64,000 bases of DNA from Christensenellaceae bacterium (GTDB lineage: Bacteria; Bacillota; Clostridia; Christensenellales; CAG-138). Of this stretch, positions 53,155 through 64,000 are shown one piece after another. How positions within the stretch are numbered: position 1 is the first letter of the stretch; every line of letters begins with the position of its first letter. Made by a program: the position numbers and the translations under genes. The stretch covers positions 538,546-602,545 of the forward strand of contig OY776633.1 of assembly GCA_963675855.1 (NCBI GenBank), given 5' to 3'. A model generated the notes under the pieces. That model was not told the origin of the DNA. It saw only the letters and a list, made by a program, of their open reading frames with translations, and did not search any database.

Positions 53155-54507
53155 ATGGCGGCGAAAGACAGAGTCACGTTCATCTGCGGGGAATGCGGCT
53201 ACGAGTCCGCCAAGTGGATGGGCAAATGCCCGCAGTGCGGAAGCTGGAACACGATGACGGAGTTTTCGCAGGTCAAGGTGAAGAGCGCCGCGCCCGCGGG
53301 CTCCGCCGTTTCACAGAAATTGAGCAAGGTGGTTCCGCTTCCGCTCAAGCGCGTCTGTGCGGGCATGGGCGAACTCAACCGCGTGCTCGGCGGCGGGCTG
53401 ATTCGCGGCATGGTGGTGCTGCTCGGCGGCGATCCCGGCATCGGGAAATCGACGCTGCTGTTACAGGCGGCGGATACGCTCGCGGCCGAGGGCGGCGTTT
53501 TATACGTATCCGGCGAGGAGAGCGCGTCCCAGATCAAGCTGCGCGCGGACCGGCTCGGCATGAAGAACGACATCGACATCCTCTGCGAAACCGATCTCGA
53601 CCAGATACTCGACGAGGCGGTAAATACGCGCTGCTCCGTGCTCATCATAGATTCGATCCAAACGATTTACTCCGGAGAAAGTGCCGGCGCGCCCGCGAGC
53701 GTGAGCCAGGTGCGCGGGGCGACCGCTCGGCTGACGCGATATGCCAAGGAAACCGGCGTGATCGTGCTCATCGTTGGCCACGTGACCAAGGACGGCAACA
53801 TCGCGGGGCCGCGCGTGCTCGAGCACATCGTGGACACCGTTTTGTATTTTGAAGGCGACCGGCACGAAGGACTGCGGCTTCTGCGCGCGGTGAAGAACCG
53901 CTTCGGTTCGACCAACGAAGTCGGCGTGTTCGAGATGACCGACGTCGGCATGCGCGAGGTGGGCGATCCATCGCGGCTGTTCCTCTCGGGGCAGAACGCG
54001 CCCGGTTGCTGCGTGACCTGCGCCATGGAGGGCTCAAGGCCGATCCTGGCCGAGGTGCAGTCGCTGCTCACCGACAACGCGTTCGGCAACCCGCGCCGCA
54101 CGAGTGCGGGCGTGGATACGGGCAGATTGAGCCTGCTGCTTGCGGTGCTGGAGAAAAAAGCGCATCTGCGGCTTTCAACGAAGGATGTCTACCTCAACGT
54201 GGTCGGCGGCCTCCGGCTGGACGAACGCAGCGTCGATCTGGCGGTCGCGTTGTGCGTCGCCTCGGCGATGATGGATCTTCCGCTGCCGAAACGTACCGCC
54301 GCGCTTGGCGAGGTGGGGTTAACAGGCGAGGTGCGTTCGTTGAGCCGCATCGAAACGCGGCTCAACGAGTGCGTGCGCTTAGGCTACGATACCGTACTGC
54401 TGCCCAAATCCGCCAAAGCGCCGAAGATCGACGGGCTCAAGACCGTGCCCGTCGCCACCGTCGGCGAGGCGATCGCCTATTGCTACGAAAAGAAACCTGT
54501 GGTATAA
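53155..54507 (+). CDS. radA: DNA repair protein RadA/Sms
   Basis: Zn ribbon CGECGYESAKWMGKCPQCGSWN, Walker A GGDPGIGKSTL, KNRFG motif, Lon-like C-terminus. Confidence 0.92.
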   Translation: MAAKDRVTFICGECGYESAKWMGKCPQCGSWNTMTEFSQVKVKSAAPAGSAVSQKLSKVVPLPLKRVCAGMGELNRVLGGGLIRGMVVLLGGDPGIGKSTLLLQAADTLAAEGGVLYVSGEESASQIKLRADRLGMKNDIDILCETDLDQILDEAVNTRCSVLIIDSIQTIYSGESAGAPASVSQVRGATARLTRYAKETGVIVLIVGHVTKDGNIAGPRVLEHIVDTVLYFEGDRHEGLRLLRAVKNRFGSTNEVGVFEMTDVGMREVGDPSRLFLSGQNAPGCCVTCAMEGSRPILAEVQSLLTDNAFGNPRRTSAGVDTGRLSLLLAVLEKKAHLRLSTKDVYLNVVGGLRLDERSVDLAVALCVASAMMDLPLPKRTAALGEVGLTGEVRSLSRIETRLNECVRLGYDTVLLPKSAKAPKIDGLKTVPVATVGEAIAYCYEKKPVV

Positions 54508-54574
54508 TCCCTCTTGCGCGTTTTCGGGGAGTTTGACCGGAAATCGCGGTATCTTTACAAATCAAATATCGTTT

Positions 54575-54640
54575 GTGCCCGTAGCCCAGCTGGATAGAGC
54601 GACAGACTCCGACATTGCTGGTTGCAGGTACGAAATTGAA
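54575..54640 (+). pseudogene. decayed, 3'-truncated tRNA-Arg-like copy
   Basis: First 27 nt match the downstream tRNA at 26/27; anticodon loop CTCCGAC kept, but anticodon stem, T-arm and 3' acceptor strand do not pair. Confidence 0.7.
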
Positions 54641-54652
54641 AACAAAATACTT

Positions 54653-54729
54653 GTGCCCGTAGCTCAGCTGGATAGAGCGTTGGACTCCGACTCCAAAGGT
54701 CAGAGGTTCGAATCCTCCCGGGCACGCCA
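54653..54729 (+). tRNA. tRNA-Arg (anticodon CCG), CCA encoded
   Basis: Hand-folded cloverleaf: acceptor GTGCCCG/CGGGCAC, D-arm GCTC..GAGC, anticodon stem TTGGA/TCCAA with loop CTCCGAC, T-arm AGAGG-TTCGAAT-CCTCC, discriminator G + CCA. Confidence 0.9.
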
Positions 54730-54731
54730 AA

Positions 54732-54770
54732 AACCCCCTAAATAGGCGACTTTTTAGGGGGTTCAATTTT
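54732..54770 (+). terminator. hairpin/terminator after the tRNA
   Basis: ccccctaaa-10 nt loop-tttaggggg followed by ttcaatttt. Confidence 0.55.
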
Positions 54771-55329
54771 AGCTCATTTTTCAAAACGTGCGACAATGCG
54801 ACAAACCAGAAAAATGCTATTCGGGGTAGCAAGAGAAAGGCCTGCGAGGGGGTATGCTCGCAGGCCGGTTTTAGCTTTTGTCGCATTTTTGACATGCGAG
54901 GGGGTTGAAAATTTTTCCTGTCGTATGCATGAAAAAAAGGATTTGCCACATGCTGATGATTGACCCAAAAGGCAGAACCAACGACCTCCGGGTTATGAGT
55001 GCGAATTTTTACGAAATATCGCTATGATTATACGATGATAATTGAAGATACTCGCCTATCTTTGCGAATAATCCGAAATATATTTTTGATGATTGTTAGC
55101 GATTATTAGCCGTTATTGATGACGATAAACATCAAATAAACATCAGGCAGTAGGTTTCATTTTCACATTACTTAAAGTATGTTTATATTAAGCGAAAATT
55201 GATCCAGTCATAATATTTGAAAACGGTCTACTAGAGAAACTTAAGATTTGCGTTTCATGCTCATATTAGTGCGATTTCCTATTAACACAAAAGTTATCCT
55301 TCTCCGTAAGTAGATGATTTTTCAACTAT

Positions 55330-55480
55330 AATTTTATGCTTTTTTTGACCATTTTTGAATTAGCATACACAACTTCAGCGCTGCGGTCCCGAACTTCCGG
55401 CGCATCTGCGATATCGGCGTGCCAAGTTCCATCTGCTTCAGCGCAAAAGCGAATTGTTCCTTAGAGAAATTACTCTTCTT
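55330..55480 (-). mobile_element. fragment of an IS3-family transposase OrfA (N-terminal HTH region only)
   Basis: Minus strand translates to KKSNFSKEQFAFALKQMELGTPISQMRRKFG..., like IS3-family OrfA N-termini; no start codon, no remainder, no inverted repeats found. Confidence 0.55.
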
Positions 55481-55563
55481 CCTTTCGTCTCCTTTTTCAA
55501 TTTCTCAGTTTGTCATTTCCTCTCATTATAGGTGGCGACTTCTTTTCGGTGAGCAGGCAATTA

Positions 55564-56295
55564 TCAGAATTGATCAATCTGGTTGATTGAGAACTGGAAC
55601 TTATCACTGCGGATAAGTTCTTTGCAGACATGCAAAATTTTCCGATTCTGATCATAGGCGCATTCATAAACCAATAAAAGCGCGTCGTCAGGGTTAACGT
55701 GCAGGTGCTTTGCCTCTTTTTCCGTTGCATAACAGATTCCGATTGTTGCTTTGCCGGCTTGGGGATAGATATGATGTAATCTCAGGATTTCGTACAGCGA
55801 ACCATCGAGGTTTTTTTCCAGCAGGAAGGCATAGTCCGTTGTAAAGTAGTTGATTTCGATGATGGCCGGTTCGTTATCCATCAGACGGATGCGCTCGATG
55901 ACCACCAGATCGGAGCCTTCTGGAACGTTCAGGTCTTTACAGACCTTTCTGCTGGCGGGTTTAATCTTTGCCGACAGTGTTTGGGTTCCAGGGATGTGAC
56001 CGCGGCTGATGCAGGTTTTGGTGAAGTCGCTGAAGGTGCTCAGATCCCTGTCGATACGTTTTCCTACGACATAAGTTCCTTTGCCTTGATGTTTGGCTAA
56101 AAGCCCCTCGTCGACCAATTCCGCTATAGCGTTACGGACGGTGATACGACTGACGGAATATTGGACACCCAGTTCGATCTCTGAAGGAATCTGATCGCCT
56201 GTCTTCCAGATATTATTTTGAATATTGTCCCGGATCAGCTGCATAAGTTGCCGATATAGTGGTACTTCACTATTACTCAGCAATAGTTCACCCAT
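55564..56295 (-). CDS. GntR-family (HutC/FrlR-like) transcriptional regulator
   Basis: Start ATG 56295 (MGELLLSNSEVPLYRQL); wHTH LPSEIELGVQYSVSRITVRNAIAELVDEGLL; UTRA-type C-terminal domain. Confidence 0.85.
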   Translation of the reverse strand: MGELLLSNSEVPLYRQLMQLIRDNIQNNIWKTGDQIPSEIELGVQYSVSRITVRNAIAELVDEGLLAKHQGKGTYVVGKRIDRDLSTFSDFTKTCISRGHIPGTQTLSAKIKPASRKVCKDLNVPEGSDLVVIERIRLMDNEPAIIEINYFTTDYAFLLEKNLDGSLYEILRLHHIYPQAGKATIGICYATEKEAKHLHVNPDDALLLVYECAYDQNRKILHVCKELIRSDKFQFSINQIDQF

Positions 56296-56528
56296 AAAAC
56301 ATTCCCCAAGTTCGTAAATATCGTTATTATTATACGCAAAAAAACGGTTAAATAGCAATGCTTGAAACAAAAAAGTCGATTAAATCATATTAAAACGAGA
56401 TAGGACGTATTATAAGAGATAAAATTAACACAATTTCATCATTTACACAAAACAACAAATATAATTGTTGATTTATCCAAAATACCCCGAATAACAGTTA
56501 AATATCAATGTCAATTTATTTTTTATTG

Positions 56529-56557
56529 TTGACTATTACATTACAAATGGTTATAAT
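56529..56557 (+). promoter_or_regulatory. sigma-70-type promoter (TTGACT-17 nt-TATAAT) for the SIS/kinase operon
   Basis: Near-consensus hexamers about 60 nt upstream of ATG 56617 in the divergent intergenic region. Confidence 0.55.
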
Positions 56558-56558
56558 A

Positions 56559-56570
56559 CGTTATATAACG
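56559..56570. promoter_or_regulatory. candidate GntR-family operator: perfect palindrome CGTTATATAACG
   Basis: 12-bp perfect palindrome of GT-N-AC type immediately downstream of the -10; related half-site GTTATAA overlaps the -10. Confidence 0.4.
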
Positions 56571-56616
56571 TGTTGGCAATAAAAAGAAGCCAGCCTGAAT
56601 TTTAGGAGGTTCTGTA

Positions 56617-57594
56617 ATGAACATCAAAGAAGTTGCAGCTCAAGCGATTGCGGCGAGAAAAGAAACCGGCGGTATCAAAAAGATCTGCTACGTGGGGTGC
56701 GGAGGATCTTTGGCAGCACTATACCCTGCTAAATATCTGTTGGAAAAAGAAAGCAATTCGCTGACGCGCATCGGCTTTTTTACGGCCAATGAATTTGTTC
56801 AGGCAACGCCGGCATATATTGACCGCAACACGCTGGTTATTGGCAGCTCGCACGAAGGCAAAACGCCTGAAACCATTGCCGCGCTGCAACTTGCCAGGGA
56901 GTTAGGTGCCGAGACAATTGGATTCACCTATTTTCCGGATGCGATTATCAAAACGGTCAGTGACCAGGTAGTAGTCTACAGCTTTGGCCCCAATGCTGTA
57001 TTTTCGCAGAAAAAAGAATCTTTGGTCCTGCGTCTGGCCATGGAACTGCTCAATCAGCTCGAAGGGTGGAGCCATTACGATCAGGCGATGGCGGGCTTTG
57101 ACCGCTATGACGATGTGGCGCTTGCCGCCAGGGAAAAAGCAATTCCTGACGCTCAGGCTTTTGCCGATAATTTTGCGCAGGAGAAGGTTCTATACACGGT
57201 TGGTTCGGGTGCTAGCTGGGCCTCGGCTTATATTGAATGCACTTGTATCCTGCTGGAAATGCAATGGATCAACTCCCACTGTATCCATGCCGGTGAATTT
57301 TTCCATGGACCGCTGGAAATTGTTGATTCCGAATCGCCGTTCCTGCTCTTCATGGGCGAAGGACCTACCAGGGTTATGGATGAAAGAGTCAAGGACTTCC
57401 TTAACAAATGGGGCCGTAAAGTGGCTATTATCGATGTAAAAGACCTGGGCATCAACGTGATAGACGATACGGTTGTTGAATACTTCGCACCCTTGCTGCT
57501 GATGGCCGTTGTCGACATCTACAATCAGAAATTGGCGTTTATCCGCAAGCACCCGATGACAACGCGGCGCTACATGTGGAAAATCAAGTATTGA
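56617..57594 (+). CDS. SIS domain-containing protein, FrlB/FraB-like fructosamine-6-phosphate deglycase
   Basis: RBS TAGGAGG; two SIS halves; GEFFHGPLEIVD..PFLLFMG and C-terminal RRYMWKIKY resemble my recollection of E. coli FrlB (GEFRHGPLEIVE...RRYYGGLVEY). Confidence 0.8.
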   Translation: MNIKEVAAQAIAARKETGGIKKICYVGCGGSLAALYPAKYLLEKESNSLTRIGFFTANEFVQATPAYIDRNTLVIGSSHEGKTPETIAALQLARELGAETIGFTYFPDAIIKTVSDQVVVYSFGPNAVFSQKKESLVLRLAMELLNQLEGWSHYDQAMAGFDRYDDVALAAREKAIPDAQAFADNFAQEKVLYTVGSGASWASAYIECTCILLEMQWINSHCIHAGEFFHGPLEIVDSESPFLLFMGEGPTRVMDERVKDFLNKWGRKVAIIDVKDLGINVIDDTVVEYFAPLLLMAVVDIYNQKLAFIRKHPMTTRRYMWKIKY

Positions 57595-57869
57595 TCTAGA
57601 GTGAAGCTGTATTTCAAGAGGGAGGAAAAGCCTCCGGCTTTCCCCCTCCCACAATACATAATCCAAGCCTTGAACGGCTTGTTAATGACAAAGAACCCGT
57701 CAGTGCGAACGCTGCAAGCTTCTTCACCACAACTGCCGAAAAGAATGTCACAATAAATAAAAGTAATTGAACACACTTGGTTAAATTGCTTGTATCATGT
57801 GACTGTATCGAAAAAGCGATACAAATACACTTCGAAATTTGCATTAAGCTATAGTGAGGGAGAACGAGA

Positions 57870-58688
57870 ATGGTGAAATTCGCTGCAGCAGGATATGTTT
57901 GTATTGATTATTATCCTGATTTTGACCAACGCAGTTACGTAACGGGAAACGGCGTTGACGTACTTTTCAATCTGCTTGACCTGAGAAATGACATTCAATC
58001 ATCTATTGTTTCCGCTGTTTCCGATGATGCATATGGGAAAATGTGCGTGGAAGCATTTCAGAAACGGAATATTGATTGCTCCCATCTGGAAATTATCCCG
58101 GGAGGGTTAACGCCTCGTGTACCGTTATATCTGAAAAACAACGACCGCGTACACGGAGATCCTGTTCGAGGCATTATGAAGAACTATGCGTTTTCTGATG
58201 AAGCCATAGATTTTATCTGCCGGCACGACATGATGCACAGTGATTTTACCGGACGCCTGATTCCGCGTCTGGAGAGCATTAAAAAACGGAACGTAAAGAT
58301 CTTTTTTGATTTGGGTAATCAGCGGGATCACCCGGACGTGAAGCACGTTTTAAGCAATATTGAATGCGGACTGGTTTCCTTTGAGGATGATTTGGAAAAG
58401 GGAAAAGAGTTTTTGCGTTACGCATGCGCGTTAGGCGCAAAGCTGATGATTGCTACATTTGCAAAAAATGGTTCAATTGCTTACGATGGTTCTTCCTTTT
58501 ATAAAGGGGAGATTGTACCGGTTGAATCTGTGATAAATACTGTAGGAGCAGGAGATTCTTATTTCGCAGGTTTCATTTCCGCCTTACTCGATGAAAAGCC
58601 GATTCCCGAATGCATGTTAAGCGGAGCAAAAAGAGCGGCTCAGGTTATTTCTGTTTTTGACCCATACTTGGAATACAACAAAAAATAG
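57870..58688 (+). CDS. PfkB-family carbohydrate kinase, FrlD-like fructosamine kinase
   Basis: RBS GAGGGAG; NNDRVHGDPVRGIM and NTVGAGDSYFAGF resemble E. coli FrlD (NDRVFGDYTEGVM, DTMGAGDSFIAGF) as I recall it. Confidence 0.8.
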   Translation: MVKFAAAGYVCIDYYPDFDQRSYVTGNGVDVLFNLLDLRNDIQSSIVSAVSDDAYGKMCVEAFQKRNIDCSHLEIIPGGLTPRVPLYLKNNDRVHGDPVRGIMKNYAFSDEAIDFICRHDMMHSDFTGRLIPRLESIKKRNVKIFFDLGNQRDHPDVKHVLSNIECGLVSFEDDLEKGKEFLRYACALGAKLMIATFAKNGSIAYDGSSFYKGEIVPVESVINTVGAGDSYFAGFISALLDEKPIPECMLSGAKRAAQVISVFDPYLEYNKK

Positions 58689-58707
58689 AGAATAGAGGAA
58701 TTAAGAT

Positions 58708-59559
58708 ATGGTGATCGACATTCACGCGCATCCGTTACTGTTTGACGAAATTAATGGCAATTCAGAGGATTTAGAATTCCGGAAACAGCAGTTTGGCGTT
58801 TATAAATCGGGGATCATGACGATTGATTTTGAGATGATCCTTCTGGAGGATGCACAGATTGATAAGGTTGTGCTTTTACCCGAGGATTATTCCGCAGAAG
58901 CGGGACGTGCCATCGTAAGCAACGATGAGATGGTTCGGATTGTTGCCAGAAGCCCGGAGCATTTCATTGGATTCGCCAGCGTCGATCCAAGACGTGTAGA
59001 TGCTGAAGAAGAACTGATCAGAGCTTTTGATTCACTGAAGCTGGCGGGATTGAAGCTGAATCTTTCACGATTGCATCTGTATCCGGATGATCCGAGCCTT
59101 GCGCCGCTTTATGAGATTTGCGAAAAAAGGAACAGACCGATTATGTTCCACGCCGGATACAGCTGGGAACCAAACACTCCTGCTAAGTATTCCGAACCCA
59201 TCCGGTTTGAAGATGTTGCGACAGGTTATCCGGATCTTCGCTTCTGCTTGGCGCATATGGGATGGCCTTGGTGGGAGGAAACCATCATGATGCTGATGAA
59301 GTATCCGAACGTATACGCTGATACCTCCACGGTATATATGGATTCTCCTAAGAATTTCTATGAGCAACTTTTCTCGGTAAACATGAATCTGAACTGGTTG
59401 CAAAACAGCTTCCAAGATAAGGTGATGTTCGGTTCCAATTGTCCGAGATTCAGGCATGTAAGAAGTCTTGCAGGCATCAAGAATCTTCCGCTGCGTAAGG
59501 ACGTTATGGATGCTGTTATAGGCGGAAACGCGGTTCGCTTCTTAGGATTGGAGGATTGA
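58708..59559 (+). CDS. amidohydrolase-family protein (PF04909-type TIM-barrel metal hydrolase)
   Basis: N-terminal DIHAHP, internal FHAG, LAHMGWPW and YADTS metal-ligand pattern. Confidence 0.8.
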   Translation: MVIDIHAHPLLFDEINGNSEDLEFRKQQFGVYKSGIMTIDFEMILLEDAQIDKVVLLPEDYSAEAGRAIVSNDEMVRIVARSPEHFIGFASVDPRRVDAEEELIRAFDSLKLAGLKLNLSRLHLYPDDPSLAPLYEICEKRNRPIMFHAGYSWEPNTPAKYSEPIRFEDVATGYPDLRFCLAHMGWPWWEETIMMLMKYPNVYADTSTVYMDSPKNFYEQLFSVNMNLNWLQNSFQDKVMFGSNCPRFRHVRSLAGIKNLPLRKDVMDAVIGGNAVRFLGLED

Positions 59560-59560
59560 C

Positions 59561-59989
59561 ATGGTTAAACTGATAGAAAATCAGATTGTAACTCGTAAAG
59601 AGTTCGAAATGATCAAGATCACGGACGAAGTATCAAAGGTCGTTGAAGAAAGCGGGATCACCAATGGCATGGTTGCAGTCATTACGAAGCATACGACAAC
59701 CGGGATAATAGTAAATGAAGCGCTTCCTTGTGTTGAGAAGGACATCGAGCTGCAGTTGGATCGTCTGGTTCCCAACGATTACCCTTATGTCCATACGCAC
59801 ATGCTTCCCACCTATGGAACCTGTTCTGGAAACGCGCCGGGGCACTTGAAGTCCATGTTGGCAGGCAATCACTGTATTTTCCCGGTTATGGATGGGAAAA
59901 TGATCCGTGGAAGAGAACAGAATATTTATTTTGTTGAGATGGACGGTTTGCAAGTCCGCAAATACTTCATCGAGGTCATGGGAGAATAA
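59561..59989 (+). CDS. YjbQ/UPF0047-family protein (secondary thiamine-phosphate synthase enzyme)
   Basis: 142 aa; HTTTGIIVNE and GHLKSML motifs typical of UPF0047. Confidence 0.75.
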   Translation: MVKLIENQIVTRKEFEMIKITDEVSKVVEESGITNGMVAVITKHTTTGIIVNEALPCVEKDIELQLDRLVPNDYPYVHTHMLPTYGTCSGNAPGHLKSMLAGNHCIFPVMDGKMIRGREQNIYFVEMDGLQVRKYFIEVMGE

Positions 59990-60035
59990 GCGCCTATATA
60001 TAGGCTAGAGCATTTTGTGGAATGAGGGATAACGT

Positions 60036-60689
60036 ATGATTTTAGGGTTTGATTTTACTTTCCTGAGCAAATACTGGTTTTTTTATCTGGAAGGTTTGAA
60101 GGTTACGCTGTCGCTGGCGTTCTGGACACTTATTCTGGCGACAATACTGGGGGTGGCCTTAGGGCTGCTTCGCAATCAAAATTATAAAATTGTCAGCGGT
60201 ATTATTGGTGGCTGGATCAACTTCATTCGCGGTGTTCCGGTTATGGTTCAGATTTTCATTGTCTATTATGGCGTTGCAACTGCCTTGCCGCCGTTCTGGG
60301 CAGCAGTAGTTTCATTGACAGTAAATAGCTCCGTATACATTGCAGAACATACCAGAGCCGGCATGCAGGCAGTTAATAAAGGTCAGCTTGAAGCGGCCAG
60401 ATGCATCGGCATGTCAAAGATGAAAGGAACCTGGTACATCATTATTCCGCAGGCCATCAAGAACATTCTGCCTTCGTTATGTAATGAATTTATCCTGTTA
60501 GTAAAGAATACTTCTATCGTGTCCGTAATTGCCCTTCACGAGTTGACGTATACCTCCAATTCTATCAGGGCAAATACGTTCCTGGCATTTGAACCGTTGA
60601 TAGTAACAGCAGTTATATACTTTGTTCTTACATATTCGTTGAAGAGACTGGTTAGTATACTCGAGAGGAGACTGCATGCACATGACTGA
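60036..60689 (+). CDS. amino acid ABC transporter permease (His/Glu/Gln/Arg/opine type)
   Basis: 217 aa, 5 TM; EAA-loop-like [13 protein letters not shown]. Confidence 0.85.
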
Positions 60690-61428
60690 TGGGAAAGAAA
60701 TTATCGTTCAGGTAATAGGATTAAAGAAAAATTTCGGGAAATTGGAAGTCCTCAAAGGCGTGGACATCGAGATTGAACGTGGTGAAGTCGTCGTGGTGAT
60801 CGGCCCATCCGGTTCGGGGAAATCGACATTGTTAAGATGCATGAACCTTCTAGAGATGCCAACGGCGGGCGACATACTGTTTCATGGGGAATCCATTTTA
60901 AGAAAAGACCTAAAGATCAACGAATATCGCGAAAGATTCGGAATGGTATTCCAGCTGTTCAATCTTTTTGATAATCTGTCGGTCCTTGAAAATGTAACCA
61001 TAGGCTTAAGGAAAGTCAGGAATAAAACAAAAGAAGAATCCAACAAAATCGCCATGGAACTGCTCAAGCGGGTAGGACTGGAAAGCAAGGCGAGCGAATA
61101 TCCATCCAGGCTTTCAGGCGGCCAGAAACAACGTGTTGCCATTGCACGTACACTTGCGATGGATCCGGAGGTGATCCTGTTTGATGAGGCGACTTCTGCG
61201 CTGGATCCGGAAATGATCGGTGAGGTTCTGAAAATCATGCGCGAGCTGGCTGTAGACGGCATGACCATGGTAGTTGTAACCCACGAGATGGGGTTTGCCC
61301 GCGAAGTTGGCGACCGTGTGGTATTTATGGATGACGGATTTATCGTTGAAGAGGGGATCGCAAAGGATGTCATTATGAATCCTCAGCATAAGAGAACAAA
61401 AGAGTTTTTAAGTAAGATGCTGATGTAA
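60676..61428 (+). CDS. amino acid ABC transporter ATP-binding protein
   Basis: Walker [10 protein letters not shown], signature [13 protein letters not shown], Walker [12 protein letters not shown]. Confidence 0.9.
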
Positions 61429-61489
61429 ATTTAATTACTGAATTATAAGCGATACGGCTTATATAAAACAAAAAAAAGGAGAAAAAGTC

Positions 61490-62446
61490 ATGAAAAAAAT
61501 CAGGAACCTGGTTTCGCTGTGCCTGGTAGCAATTATGCTGATCCCTCTTGCAGCATGCTCCAGCACTCCGACCACCACGCCCCCGGCAGAAGCAACTGAA
61601 GCAACGACAGAAGAAGCTACGACAGAAGAAGCAACGACAGAAGCGGTAACGACAGAAGAAGCCGAAGATTGGGGCCCGATTTTCGCCGACCTGATTGAGA
61701 ACGGCAAATTGAAAGTTGGCATTATTGGCAACGATCCGACCTTCTGTTTCCATACGCTACAGGATGGAAAAGACGTTCTGGTTGGTTTTGAAGTAGCCGG
61801 TATGTATGAGATGGCAGCCCGTTTGAGCGAGTACCTTGGTCGTGAAATCACCGTGGATTTCTACGAGAGCGATTTTACTGGCTGCATGTCTGCATTGCAG
61901 GCGGGCAAAATATACTTCGTGACGCGGCTCAGCCCCACGGACGAGCGCAAAGAGACATGGTTATTCACTGACGTATATCATAAATCCAATGAATGCTATG
62001 TAGCAAAGGCAGATAATGCAGACAATGATAACTTCACAGGAACTTTAAAAGGCGTTACAATTGCGGGCGCGATGGGTTCTATTGACATCACGATGACGCG
62101 TCACCTTTATCCGGACGCCACGATTCAGGAATTGAGTGCTCTTCCCGATCTTTTGTTGGCGGTGAAAAACGGAAAGGCCGATCTGGCTTGTATGAACGCG
62201 GTTTCCGCAGCGATGTCAGTGGCCGCTAATCCCGATCTGGTTGTAGTTGACAAACTGACCTGGGCGCCTACCGACGAATTCGACAAAGGATGCGGTCTGT
62301 GCATGGAATATGGCAACGAGGATTTTGCACAGTGGGCAAGCGACTTCTTTGCAGATATTACGGCGGAAGGCCTTTGGGCGCAGATGCAGTCTGATGCAGC
62401 AGCGCAACTCGACGAGAAGACCCTGCAGAATTTTATTATTGATTAA
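61490..62446 (+). CDS. ABC transporter substrate-binding lipoprotein (family 3, polar amino acid type) with Thr/Glu-rich linker
   Basis: Signal peptide with lipobox LAAC; EATTE repeats; SBP_bac_3-like body. Confidence 0.8.
   Translation: MKKIRNLVSLCLVAIMLIPLAACSSTPTTTPPAEATEATTEEATTEEATTEAVTTEEAEDWGPIFADLIENGKLKVGIIGNDPTFCFHTLQDGKDVLVGFEVAGMYEMAARLSEYLGREITVDFYESDFTGCMSALQAGKIYFVTRLSPTDERKETWLFTDVYHKSNECYVAKADNADNDNFTGTLKGVTIAGAMGSIDITMTRHLYPDATIQELSALPDLLLAVKNGKADLACMNAVSAAMSVAANPDLVVVDKLTWAPTDEFDKGCGLCMEYGNEDFAQWASDFFADITAEGLWAQMQSDAAAQLDEKTLQNFIID
61598..61657 (+). repeat. 15-nt tandem repeat x4 within the SBP gene (encodes EATTE units)
   Basis: gaagcaacgacagaa / gaagctacgacagaa / gaagcaacgacagaa / gcggtaacgacagaa. 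Confidence 0.85.
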
Positions 62447-62507
62447 GCGTAATGCGAATCAAAAAATACGAGCAGATTCTATTTTGAGTGAAAAACAGCA
62501 TAGAATG

Positions 62508-62541
62508 CCCTGTGTATCCAGCGCTTGCGCTGGATACGGGG
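62508..62541 (+). terminator. hairpin terminator after the SBP gene
   Basis: gtatccagcg-cttg-cgctggatac, weak T-tract (ctttct). Confidence 0.5.
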
Positions 62542-62748
62542 CTTTCTACTATGTATATAAAATGAAATAAAAATGAAATATAGAGATTGGGAGCCTGCTA
62601 AAATAAAAGACTATCTGATATGATACAACGAAACAATGATCCAAATATCGAAAGCAGGAAATGGAAGAGCGCAGGAAGAAATACGGTGAGCATTTCAAGA
62701 AGAATGCCGGTCTGTTATCTTATGCAAATCCAAAGGTATAGAGAAAAT

Positions 62749-63765
62749 ATGAGAAAACTGATGATACTGTCTACCGGCGGAACCATCGCCTGCACGCAGA
62801 CCGAGGACGGCCTGATCCCAACGCTGACCGCCGGCGACATCCTCGCCTTTACGCCGAACGCCAAGCGGCTCGGGCAGCTGGAAACGAAGACGATCTTCAA
62901 CCTGGACAGCTCGAATATTCAGCCCGAGGAGTGGCACATCATCGCAAAAGCCGTTTTCGACTGCCTGCCGGAGTACGACGGTATCGTGATCCTGCACGGT
63001 ACGGATACGATGGCGTATACGGCGTCCATGCTGTCCTTCATGCTGCAAAACGTCGACAAACCCGTGGTGATCACGGGCTCGCAGCTTCCCATCGGTCATC
63101 CGGATACGGACGCGAAGTTGAACCTCAGCCACGCGCTGATCACCGCCGCGAGCGGATTAAAGGGTATATTCGTCGTATTCGACAGAAAGATCATACTCGG
63201 CTGCCGCGCAGCGAAGGTGCGCACGACGAGCCAGAACGCGTTCGAGAGCATCAACCGCCCCGCCGTCGGGCGCATCCGCGCGAACCGCGTTAACATCGCC
63301 GTGCCGCCGGAGAAAAAAACCGCCGCGCCCGTACTGGACGACGCGATCGAGCCGAACGTATTTCTGCTCAAACTGATCCCCGGAACGAGACCGGAGGTGT
63401 TCGACGACATCGCGCGCATGGGCTACCGCGGCGTGGTGATCGAAGGCTTCGGCCTCGGCGGGATACACTGCCTGCGGAGAAACCTGCTCGACGGGATACA
63501 AAAATTGCTGGACGAGAACGTCGCGGTGCTGTTAACCACGCAGTGCCGCTACGAACCGTCCGATCCGGCGGTATACGAAACGGGGCGTCTCGCGCTGGAA
63601 CTCGGTATCATGCAATCCTACGACATGACGAGCGAATGCGCGGTGACCAAGCTTATGTGGGCGCTCGCGCACGCAGAGAATCCCGCGGACGTTCGGAAGT
63701 GGATGTATACGAATCTCTGCGGAGAGATCTCGCTCCCGCGCGGCGCAAAGGCGGCGCACGCTTGA
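62749..63765 (+). CDS. asparaginase, type I (cytoplasmic AnsA-like)
   Basis: ATG 62749 (MRKLMILSTGGTIA); catalytic TGGTIA and HGTDTM motifs; no signal peptide; the track ORF from 62620 is an extension. Confidence 0.85.
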   Translation: MRKLMILSTGGTIACTQTEDGLIPTLTAGDILAFTPNAKRLGQLETKTIFNLDSSNIQPEEWHIIAKAVFDCLPEYDGIVILHGTDTMAYTASMLSFMLQNVDKPVVITGSQLPIGHPDTDAKLNLSHALITAASGLKGIFVVFDRKIILGCRAAKVRTTSQNAFESINRPAVGRIRANRVNIAVPPEKKTAAPVLDDAIEPNVFLLKLIPGTRPEVFDDIARMGYRGVVIEGFGLGGIHCLRRNLLDGIQKLLDENVAVLLTTQCRYEPSDPAVYETGRLALELGIMQSYDMTSECAVTKLMWALAHAENPADVRKWMYTNLCGEISLPRGAKAAHA

Positions 63766-63875: not shown

Positions 63876-64000
63876 TTGAACGAAGTAAAAAAAACAATTG
63901 CATTGGCAGATAACTGCGTTGATATTTACTACAAATTTAATCGTTTTTATGTTGCCGGAAATAGCATCAACTTCGCCTTGAATTATAGAGCTCTGGGTGG
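63876..64000 (+). CDS. 5' end of a second FrlD-like PfkB kinase (runs off the window)
   Basis: From TTG 63876: NEVKKTIALADNCVDIYYKFNRFYVAGNSINFALNYRALG, close to the E. coli FrlD N-terminus (IGDNCVDIY...GGNAVNVAVY) as I recall it; absent from the ORF track because no stop is reached. Confidence 0.5.
   Translation, partial: MNEVKKTIALADNCVDIYYKFNRFYVAGNSINFALNYRALG

Follow-up and report, generated by a model that had tools for sequence, protein, structure and literature searches.

A mosaic, horizontally acquired island for predicted Amadori-compound catabolism carries a recruited host asparaginase in a Christensenellaceae bacterium

The stretch of DNA analysed here, 64,000 nt from a Christensenellaceae bacterium, is referred to as the window (G000:C1:538546-602545). 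The host genome, G000, is a single contig of 2.85 Mb with a G+C content (GC) of 55.6%. Next to a tRNA-Arg gene the window carries a GntR-type regulator gene, a divergent operon for a SIS-family deglycase, a PfkB-family kinase, an amidohydrolase-2 protein, a YjbQ protein and an ATP-binding cassette (ABC) importer, and then an asparaginase gene. An earlier note on this DNA had described a horizontally acquired low-GC island for the utilisation of Amadori compounds, ending at the start of the asparaginase gene and resembling the frl systems of Escherichia coli and Bacillus subtilis. Our analysis established that this is a real, horizontally acquired Amadori-compound island, but also that it is a mosaic, fra-like in architecture and with a recruited host asparaginase; its particular substrate is predicted from the sequence.

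Pfam and NCBIfam scans confirmed all nine predicted genes of the locus, each with the family given to it earlier. Positions below are those of the window, continued past its end as window-equivalent positions (genome 605242-605272 corresponds to 66697-66727), and features lie on the plus strand unless stated otherwise; G010, G017, G044, G045 and G046 denote congener genomes, and L-numbers denote fetched loci or public contigs. The regulator gene (55564..56295, minus strand) encodes a GntR/HutC-family protein of 243 aa with matches to Pfam GntR and UTRA that is 32% identical to E. coli FrlR. Between it and the divergent operon lies the best promoter-like site of the region, TTGACT-17-TATAAT (11/12 matches), and after it a palindrome, CGTTATATAACG, at 56559-56570 that we infer to be a candidate operator (both within 56529..56570). 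The first gene of the operon (56617..57594) encodes a SIS protein of 325 aa, a predicted fructosamine-6-phosphate deglycase of the FraB type. Its best match in the Protein Data Bank (PDB) was Salmonella FraB (9OTJ), over the full length, with an E value of 6e-94, 44% identity and 318 bits. In the alignment to 9OTJ, the FraB residues G30-G31, K133, E214, H230, P232 and R310 are kept; E214 is the general base and H230 the general acid of FraB (PMC12359202). Identity to E. coli FrlB was 27%, and the FrlB model NF008481 gave 109 bits against a cut-off of 430.

A 275-nt spacer with a hairpin (57595..57869) leads to the kinase gene (57870..58688), which encodes an FrlD-like PfkB fructosamine 6-kinase of 272 aa. 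The FrlD model, NF007321, matched this protein over its full length with 213.9 bits. A second FrlD-like kinase gene, for 264 aa and with a GC at third codon positions (GC3) of 0.475, starts at the end of the window (63876..64000, continuing to window-equivalent 64670) and scored 216.8 bits. NF007321 was the best model for both kinases, with both scores below its cut-off of 247. The two are 25% identical to each other and 30-31% identical to E. coli FrlD (the first kinase 30%). The earlier assignment to fructosamine metabolism held, as the best matches of the SIS protein and of the kinases are characterised fructosamine enzymes. Directly after the first kinase gene follow the genes for a PF04909 amidohydrolase-2 TIM-barrel protein (58708..59559; Pfam, 141 bits) and for a YjbQ/UPF0047 protein (59561..59989; Pfam and TIGR00149 matches).

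The importer is of the polar-amino-acid type. Its permease (60036..60689) has BPD_transp_1 and a HEQRo three-transmembrane domain, the nearest models being GlnP, EhuD and a cystine permease. The ATPase (60676..61428; ABC_tran) resembles GlnQ and TcyN, scoring 309 and 303 bits and staying under the cut-offs. The substrate-binding protein (61490..62446; Pfam SBP_bac_3) is a lipoprotein whose N-terminus ends in ...LAAC (lipobox), and its nearest structures are amino-acid binding proteins. A hairpin was read in the sequence after its gene (62514..62537). The G000 genome holds only this one such locus.

The asparaginase gene (62749..63765) encodes a type I L-asparaginase of 338 aa (TIGR00519, 308.7 bits; cut-off 260.5). 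The type II model gave 126.5 bits against a cut-off of 314, and the protein starts MRKLMILSTGG and has no signal peptide. A longer open reading frame (ORF) of 381 aa from 62620, which would have added an N-terminal extension (a signal peptide or a chimeric, FraE-like export sequence), was rejected as an artefact of the ORF caller reading through an IS3 remnant. The ATG at 62749 is the true start: it is preceded by a stretch resembling a ribosome-binding site and is aligned with the starts of the native copy of the genome and of L101.

The composition of the locus deviates strongly from that of the host. The GC of 54730-62770 is 44.0%, compared with 55.6% for the genome (z = -2.8 relative to all 8-kb windows of the genome), and only 1.7% of these windows are equally low. 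In a 500-nt profile, GC declines from 0.64 to 0.35 over 54250-55500, directly past the tRNA gene, and has recovered to 0.59-0.62 at 62750-63750. GC3 is 0.41-0.56 in the eight island genes, compared with a genome ORF mean of 0.70 +/- 0.11; radA and the asparaginase gene have values of 0.82 and 0.81. The low-GC island beside tRNA-Arg was therefore borne out on a genome-wide scale, whereas its proposed right end was not: the asparaginase gene, a 98.7% duplicate of a native gene, is part of the locus, and GC is low again after it, on past the window end.

The left border of the variable region is tRNA-Arg(CCG) (54653..54729), the only tRNA called by ARAGORN. A decayed 5' half-copy of this tRNA lies just upstream (54575..54640; 29-nt match of 96.6% to the intact tRNA, without an ARAGORN call) and predates the island, since congener homology extends through it. 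The same single tRNA-Arg follows radA in all six congeners checked, and the DNA to its right was unrelated to that of G000 in each of the four congeners compared, so the synteny check found this border sound. Other cargo at this position includes, for example, ADP-ribosyl-glycohydrolase/macro-domain genes and a polysaccharide cluster. At this hotspot in G017, L009 4159-8959 carries ADP-ribosylglycohydrolase, HD-domain and macro-domain genes, which may form an ADP-ribosylation-related module. A GC-rich hairpin directly 3' of the tRNA (54733..54764) belongs to the conserved tRNA flank in congeners. Its sole other copy in the genome, a 32-nt repeat of 93.8% identity at genome 605242-605272 (window-equivalent 66697-66727), marks the far end of the variable region. 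The non-coding left arm contains a multi-copy repeat relic (54975..55170, no strand assigned) that is matched at 71-92% by four further sites of the genome and by sequences in congeners.

Past the window end we found, in order, the remainder of the second FrlD-like kinase gene, an IS3-family relic whose orfA lacks its 5' end and whose orfB has an internal deletion, then a lipoprotein-like ORF and the hairpin repeat. The variable region thus reaches window-equivalent position ~66.7 kb, ~4 kb past the window end. The lipoprotein-like ORF (273 aa; G000:C1:604308-605129, window-equivalent 65763-66584), between the IS3 relic and the right hairpin, has a GC3 of 0.27 and no Pfam or NCBIfam match. The next genes to the right are an ABC-exporter pair. 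In G010 and G045 this pair lies on the same contig as radA-tRNA-Arg (30 kb and 12 kb apart, respectively), the two bracketing other cargo. The site is a variable hotspot, ~12 kb long in G000, between radA-tRNA-Arg(CCG) and the ABC-exporter pair.

The locus shares with tRNA-linked integrative genomic islands its position beside a tRNA gene, its deviant composition and its absence from relatives. It differs from them in two respects. In agreement with the earlier note, Pfam scans found no integrase among the genes between the tRNA and the ABC exporter, and no direct repeat duplicating the tRNA 3' end was found, the sole repeat being the 32-nt hairpin just 3' of the tRNA. A search with the joined flanks in 40 genomes of the genus gave no sequence that spans the junction as an empty site would. 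In several congeners (G017, G044 and G046), the 3' part of tRNA-Arg and the hairpin (window 54684-54806) are multi-copy, G017 having five partial copies in addition to that at the radA site; attachment-site duplicates of integrative elements would have this appearance.

When the 7-kb core of the island (55560-62560) was searched for in 39 other species of the genus, only ~250 nt of generic ABC-ATPase similarity were found. Copies with 88-89% DNA identity are present on four public contigs (L018, L101, L102 and L103). In L101 and L103 the island is 89% identical over 7.2 kb and includes the asparaginase; their alignment to the window runs up to 62548 and pauses there. A search of the congener island copies for the left arm (54560-55400) gave no match. 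The left flank of L103 (GH127, LacI, sugar ABC and DUF624 genes) runs collinear with 14 congeners (76-85%) and has no counterpart in G000, which shows that the island of a second species of the genus occupies another place in the chromosome. Between the two islands, the nine genes have synonymous divergences (dS) of 0.32-0.61 and omega values of 0.01-0.12, indicating that all are maintained by selection. After its asparaginase gene, the congener island has a second Amadori-type set of GntR, DUF624, second SIS and sugar-type binding-protein genes with 37-41% GC (L101 14300-17751, L103 17527-18033).

The closest relatives of most of the operon were found in the Lachnospiraceae. The amidohydrolase has its best relatives, of 74-88% identity, in Hungatella, Enterocloster, Frisingicoccus caecimuris and gut metagenome-assembled genomes of this family, and the first kinase is 62-83% identical to the kinases of the same loci. 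In ~25 Lachnospiraceae loci the kinase, amidohydrolase-2, YjbQ, permease, ATPase and binding-protein genes occur in identical order with 70-88% identity. The GC of this cassette is 0.40-0.50 there and near that of the flanks in most loci. The cassette is thus compositionally at home in the Lachnospiraceae. The host is an uncultured member of the Clostridia whose RadA neighbours carry the labels Clostridiales, Clostridia or Christensenella sp., so that the cassette has crossed at least family lines. Regulators (~26-38% identical to that of the window) and deglycases (~40%) of the Lachnospiraceae loci sit elsewhere. Similarity to the Lachnospiraceae begins at the kinase, and the 275-nt spacer is the joint of the two parts. 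A SIS relative of 79% identity, the closest outside the island, occurs with a 61% identical GntR in the same divergent arrangement on L016 (a 2.0-Mb genome), beside a sugar-type ABC importer. On this contig (L016 10001-14213) there is no adjacent PfkB kinase gene, and a truncated FGGY kinase gene lies upstream.

These relationships indicate that the GntR and SIS module is of other origin than the cassette and that the island is a mosaic of at least three origins. Horizontal acquisition, as claimed earlier, stands: the core is missing from 39 congeners, an 89% copy sits at another site and the cassette is like those of the Lachnospiraceae. A transfer in one block is not supported.

The third component is the asparaginase. 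The island gene and a second asparaginase gene of the genome (2091540-2092553) differ at 13 of 1014 nt (98.7% identity). The latter lies at 2.09 Mb in a 10-kb block that is collinear with congeners and is for this reason the native gene. The island copy has a host-like GC of 0.606, and it is homologous to the native copy from 8 nt ahead of the ATG onward. The islands of L101 and L103 carry an asparaginase gene in the corresponding position, with 91.5% protein identity, 87% DNA identity and an omega of 0.095. In a maximum-likelihood tree, the asparaginases of the genus form a clade (97/98), and the two G000 copies together with the island copies of L101 and L103 form a clade inside it (97/92). 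The duplication of the native gene, the nesting of the copies within the genus, the island position in two species and the Lachnospiraceae cassettes without the gene together argue that the acquired locus took up its asparaginase from the host genus and has kept it. That the two G000 genes are nearly identical points to recent gene conversion or re-duplication. At the 13 differing sites L101 agrees with copy A at 7 and with copy B at 4, which is uninformative about the direction of conversion.

Decayed insertion sequences border the locus. The IS3 OrfA relic mentioned in the earlier note was located at 55371..55557 (minus strand), where the translation shows the pattern K.S.F..EQ.AFALKQ.ELGT; it is multi-copy in the genome and ~77% identical to other IS copies there. 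In alignments of L101, L103 and L018 to the window, the common segment starts inside this relic at 55394, so that the relic travelled with the genes. A 5' remnant of another IS3-family element with an orfA-like start (62589..62735; 80% to genome 1643112-1643262) lies directly upstream of the asparaginase gene and is missing at the corresponding place in L101. With regard to a composite transposon, in which the cargo would lie between two copies of one IS, the relic at 55371-55557 (minus strand) and that at window-equivalent 64702-65613 (plus strand) are inverted, ~69-77% alike and both truncated; the right-hand copy is absent from the congener island. Several copies of the left-arm repeats and IS3-type sequences also occur in a 103-kb stretch of 46% GC (G000:C1:2464500-2567500), which may be a large mobile-element region.

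On balance, we favour the view that this mosaic island, acquired horizontally, serves the catabolism of Amadori compounds (1-deoxy-fructosyl amino acids), most likely of the alpha-glycated fructose-asparagine or fructose-aspartate type. This fra-like substrate is suggested by the FraB-type deglycase, the fra gene order and the amino-acid-type importer. The binding lipoprotein, permease and ATPase would import a fructosyl amino acid that still bears the amino-acid carboxylate. The FrlD-like kinase would phosphorylate the sugar at C6, and the FraB-type deglycase would convert the 6-phosphate to glucose-6-phosphate and the free amino acid. The type I asparaginase may deamidate either fructose-asparagine, giving fructose-aspartate, or the released asparagine. 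In the fra-like order of reactions, import would be followed by deamidation, then by 6-phosphorylation and last by deglycation, which yields glucose-6-phosphate and aspartate; the amidohydrolase-2/YjbQ pair would add a further step. The GntR/UTRA protein would repress the operon at the promoter-side palindrome until an inducer binds. As to the history of the locus and the direction of transfer, a Lachnospiraceae-type kinase-amidohydrolase-YjbQ-ABC cassette may have been joined to a GntR and SIS module of other origin, a copy of the asparaginase of the host genus may have been added within the genus, and the unit would have come to different sites in the two species, after which the flanking IS3 elements decayed.

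Several observations weigh against this view. The SIS protein scores high with FraB (318 bits), with the Salmonella structure 3FKJ (294 bits) and with B. subtilis FrlB (252 bits), and sequence alone can therefore not fix the amino-acid moiety or aspartate as the leaving group. The nearest NCBIfam model of the binding protein is, weakly (62 bits), of the lysine/arginine/ornithine type. Whereas FraE is periplasmic, the island asparaginase is of type I and cytoplasmic. No asparaginase gene was found within 10 kb of the Lachnospiraceae cassettes, which implies that the core cassette needs none, and in G000 a hairpin and an IS remnant stand between the operon and the asparaginase gene, making co-transcription uncertain. 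The pathway as drawn leaves the amidohydrolase-2 and YjbQ proteins without a step. As a caveat on composition, the genome has ~25 other regions of at least 8 kb below ~52% GC, so that the compositional shift is strong and not unique.

The amidohydrolase-2/YjbQ pair deserves separate consideration. Among the fetched loci the two genes follow the kinase gene in nearly all related loci, and the kinase-amidohydrolase-YjbQ linkage holds from 88% down to ~45% identity, with different transporters; at ~45% identity the neighbours of the pair are FrlC-like, FGGY, BtpA, PfkB and SIS genes. An AlphaFold2 model of the amidohydrolase (pLDDT 90.9) matches the generic PF04909 fold only, with TM values of 0.65-0.74, and its fold neighbours in the PDB are BB4693, LigJ, LigW and ACMSD. 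Where its relatives have the canonical FGSD, the Amadori-linked clade has FGSN, which exchanges the near-universal catalytic beta-8 Asp for Asn (residue 244). Two intermediate sequences (L044 and L051) have N148 and D244, the reciprocal swap of the H148 and N244 of the clade, and distant environmental homologues keep H148 and D244. A literature search found no paper mentioning both "Amadori" and "YjbQ". We tentatively suggest that the pair, which in these loci accompanies fructosamine kinases across Firmicutes, represents an undescribed step of Amadori catabolism, which could open or convert a modified fructosamine to the substrate of the kinase and deglycase or could provide a second deglycation route, and that the recruited type I asparaginase extends the pathway to fructose-asparagine as an independent repeat of the fraE solution.

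The same data bear on a substrate of another kind. The locus could serve some other or modified compound of Amadori type, for example fructosyl-glutamine or a fructosamine that is cyclised, peptide-bound or in lactone or amide form; the amidohydrolase-2/YjbQ pair would then be required either ahead of the kinase step or after it, and the asparaginase would do no more than salvage nitrogen. Such a substrate would agree with the persistence of the linkage amid varied transporters and extra FrlC-like, FGGY and BtpA genes, and the Asp-to-Asn exchange suggests non-standard chemistry. We consider it doubtful, since there is no characterised relative, the best PDB matches being an uncharacterised protein, a hydratase and decarboxylases of 14-22% identity, and since a kinase and a deglycase alone suffice in all studied pathways.

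Fructoselysine, that is, epsilon-glycated lysine, would make the locus similar to E. coli frlABCD or to the Intestinimonas cluster and leave the asparaginase uninvolved. The best model for both kinases is indeed the FrlD 6-kinase (214 and 217 bits), the top NCBIfam model of the binding protein is of the lysine/arginine/ornithine type, an importer of the amino-acid type fits a substrate whose alpha-amino acid end is free, and Intestinimonas employs an ABC importer, a kinase and a deglycase for fructoselysine (PMC4697335). We nevertheless regard this substrate as unlikely. The SIS protein scores far below the FrlB cut-off and is closer to FraB (44% against 27% identity; 318 against 109 bits), the kinase scores stay under the equivalog cut-off of 247, the FrlC epimerase is absent at the locus and the asparaginase has been retained under purifying selection in the islands of two species.

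The asparaginase gene could also have come to lie next to the operon by accident of an IS-mediated rearrangement or gene conversion and be functionally unrelated to it. The IS3 remnant directly upstream of the gene, the decayed IS3 copies that flank the locus, the hairpin after the binding-protein gene and the donor-type cassettes without asparaginase would all agree with such an accident. We find it quite improbable, because the asparaginase gene has the corresponding position in the island of the second species, at another site and with homology starting ~8-10 nt before the ATG, because its omega between the islands is 0.095 with a dS like that of the other island genes, and because the resulting gene order matches that of the Salmonella fra operon. 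That the whole region is an ancestral low-GC segment, lost in relatives without any horizontal acquisition, is hardly credible: the ~25 other low-GC regions, the failure to see an integrase gene among the genes scanned and the lack of an empty site in any congener searched would suit it, but it requires the region to have been lost independently many times among the 39 species searched, the sole congener carrying the island has it at a different site, the closest relatives and matching composition of the cassette are in the Lachnospiraceae and IS relics border the region.

In guts and digesters, a sizeable supply of carbon and nitrogen comes as Amadori compounds, which stem from food and feed that has been heated and from decaying plant matter, and the consumers of these compounds affect colonisation resistance. 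Clostridia consume fructose-asparagine in the gut, and Salmonella exploits this compound once Clostridia are removed; the fra genes themselves are probably from Clostridia (PMC12755824, Ahmer group). The island also places two families without an assigned role, the PF04909 Asn-variant clade and YjbQ, in a compact and clearly delimited context.

Among the known systems, the uncharacterised Lachnospiraceae cassette (Frisingicoccus, Hungatella and Enterocloster) shares with the island six genes in the same order, 70-88% identity and a GC of 40-50%; it differs in having a regulator (~26-38%) and deglycase (~40%) of other type, located elsewhere, and no asparaginase gene within 10 kb. With E. coli frlABCD-frlR, which handles fructoselysine and psicoselysine, the island has in common the logic of kinase, SIS deglycase and GntR regulator. 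Its enzymes are not FrlB and FrlD equivalogs, their scores lying below the NCBIfam cut-offs, and Pfam scans of the locus genes found neither an FrlC epimerase (a xylose-isomerase-like TIM barrel) nor an FrlA APC transporter. The analogy to frl drawn earlier thus survives in this logic and is the weaker one otherwise, as the deglycase resembles FraB and the layout of the locus resembles fra. B. subtilis frlBONMD-frlR acts on alpha-glycated amino acids. Its FrlB (PDB 3EUA, 252 bits) is of the same subfamily as the island deglycase, and both loci have an ABC importer. According to PMC12632257 the system prefers alpha-glycated substrates, which would fit the substrate favoured here. Its importer FrlONM is, however, of the sugar type, as is that beside the 79% SIS homologue in L016, and B. 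subtilis lacks the asparaginase, amidohydrolase-2 and YjbQ genes of the island.

The closest counterpart is the fra locus of Salmonella (fraR, fraBDAE). Where Salmonella has the DcuA-family FraA, the island has a three-component amino-acid-type ABC importer with a lipoprotein, and where Salmonella has the periplasmic type II FraE, it has a cytoplasmic type I asparaginase copied from the host. The position of FraD is taken by an FrlD-type PfkB kinase (213.9 bits; FrlD cut-off 247), and the island adds the amidohydrolase-2 and YjbQ genes between kinase and transporter and a second kinase gene downstream. Both loci were acquired horizontally, both have a FraB-type deglycase with E214 and H230, and both have the same order, with the GntR gene apart and then deglycase, kinase, transporter and, last, asparaginase (PMC4072780). 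The island thereby illustrates how a pathway may be assembled from a foreign transporter-kinase cassette, a deglycase-regulator module of other origin and a drafted housekeeping gene of the host, with a result of the same architecture as the Salmonella fra operon.

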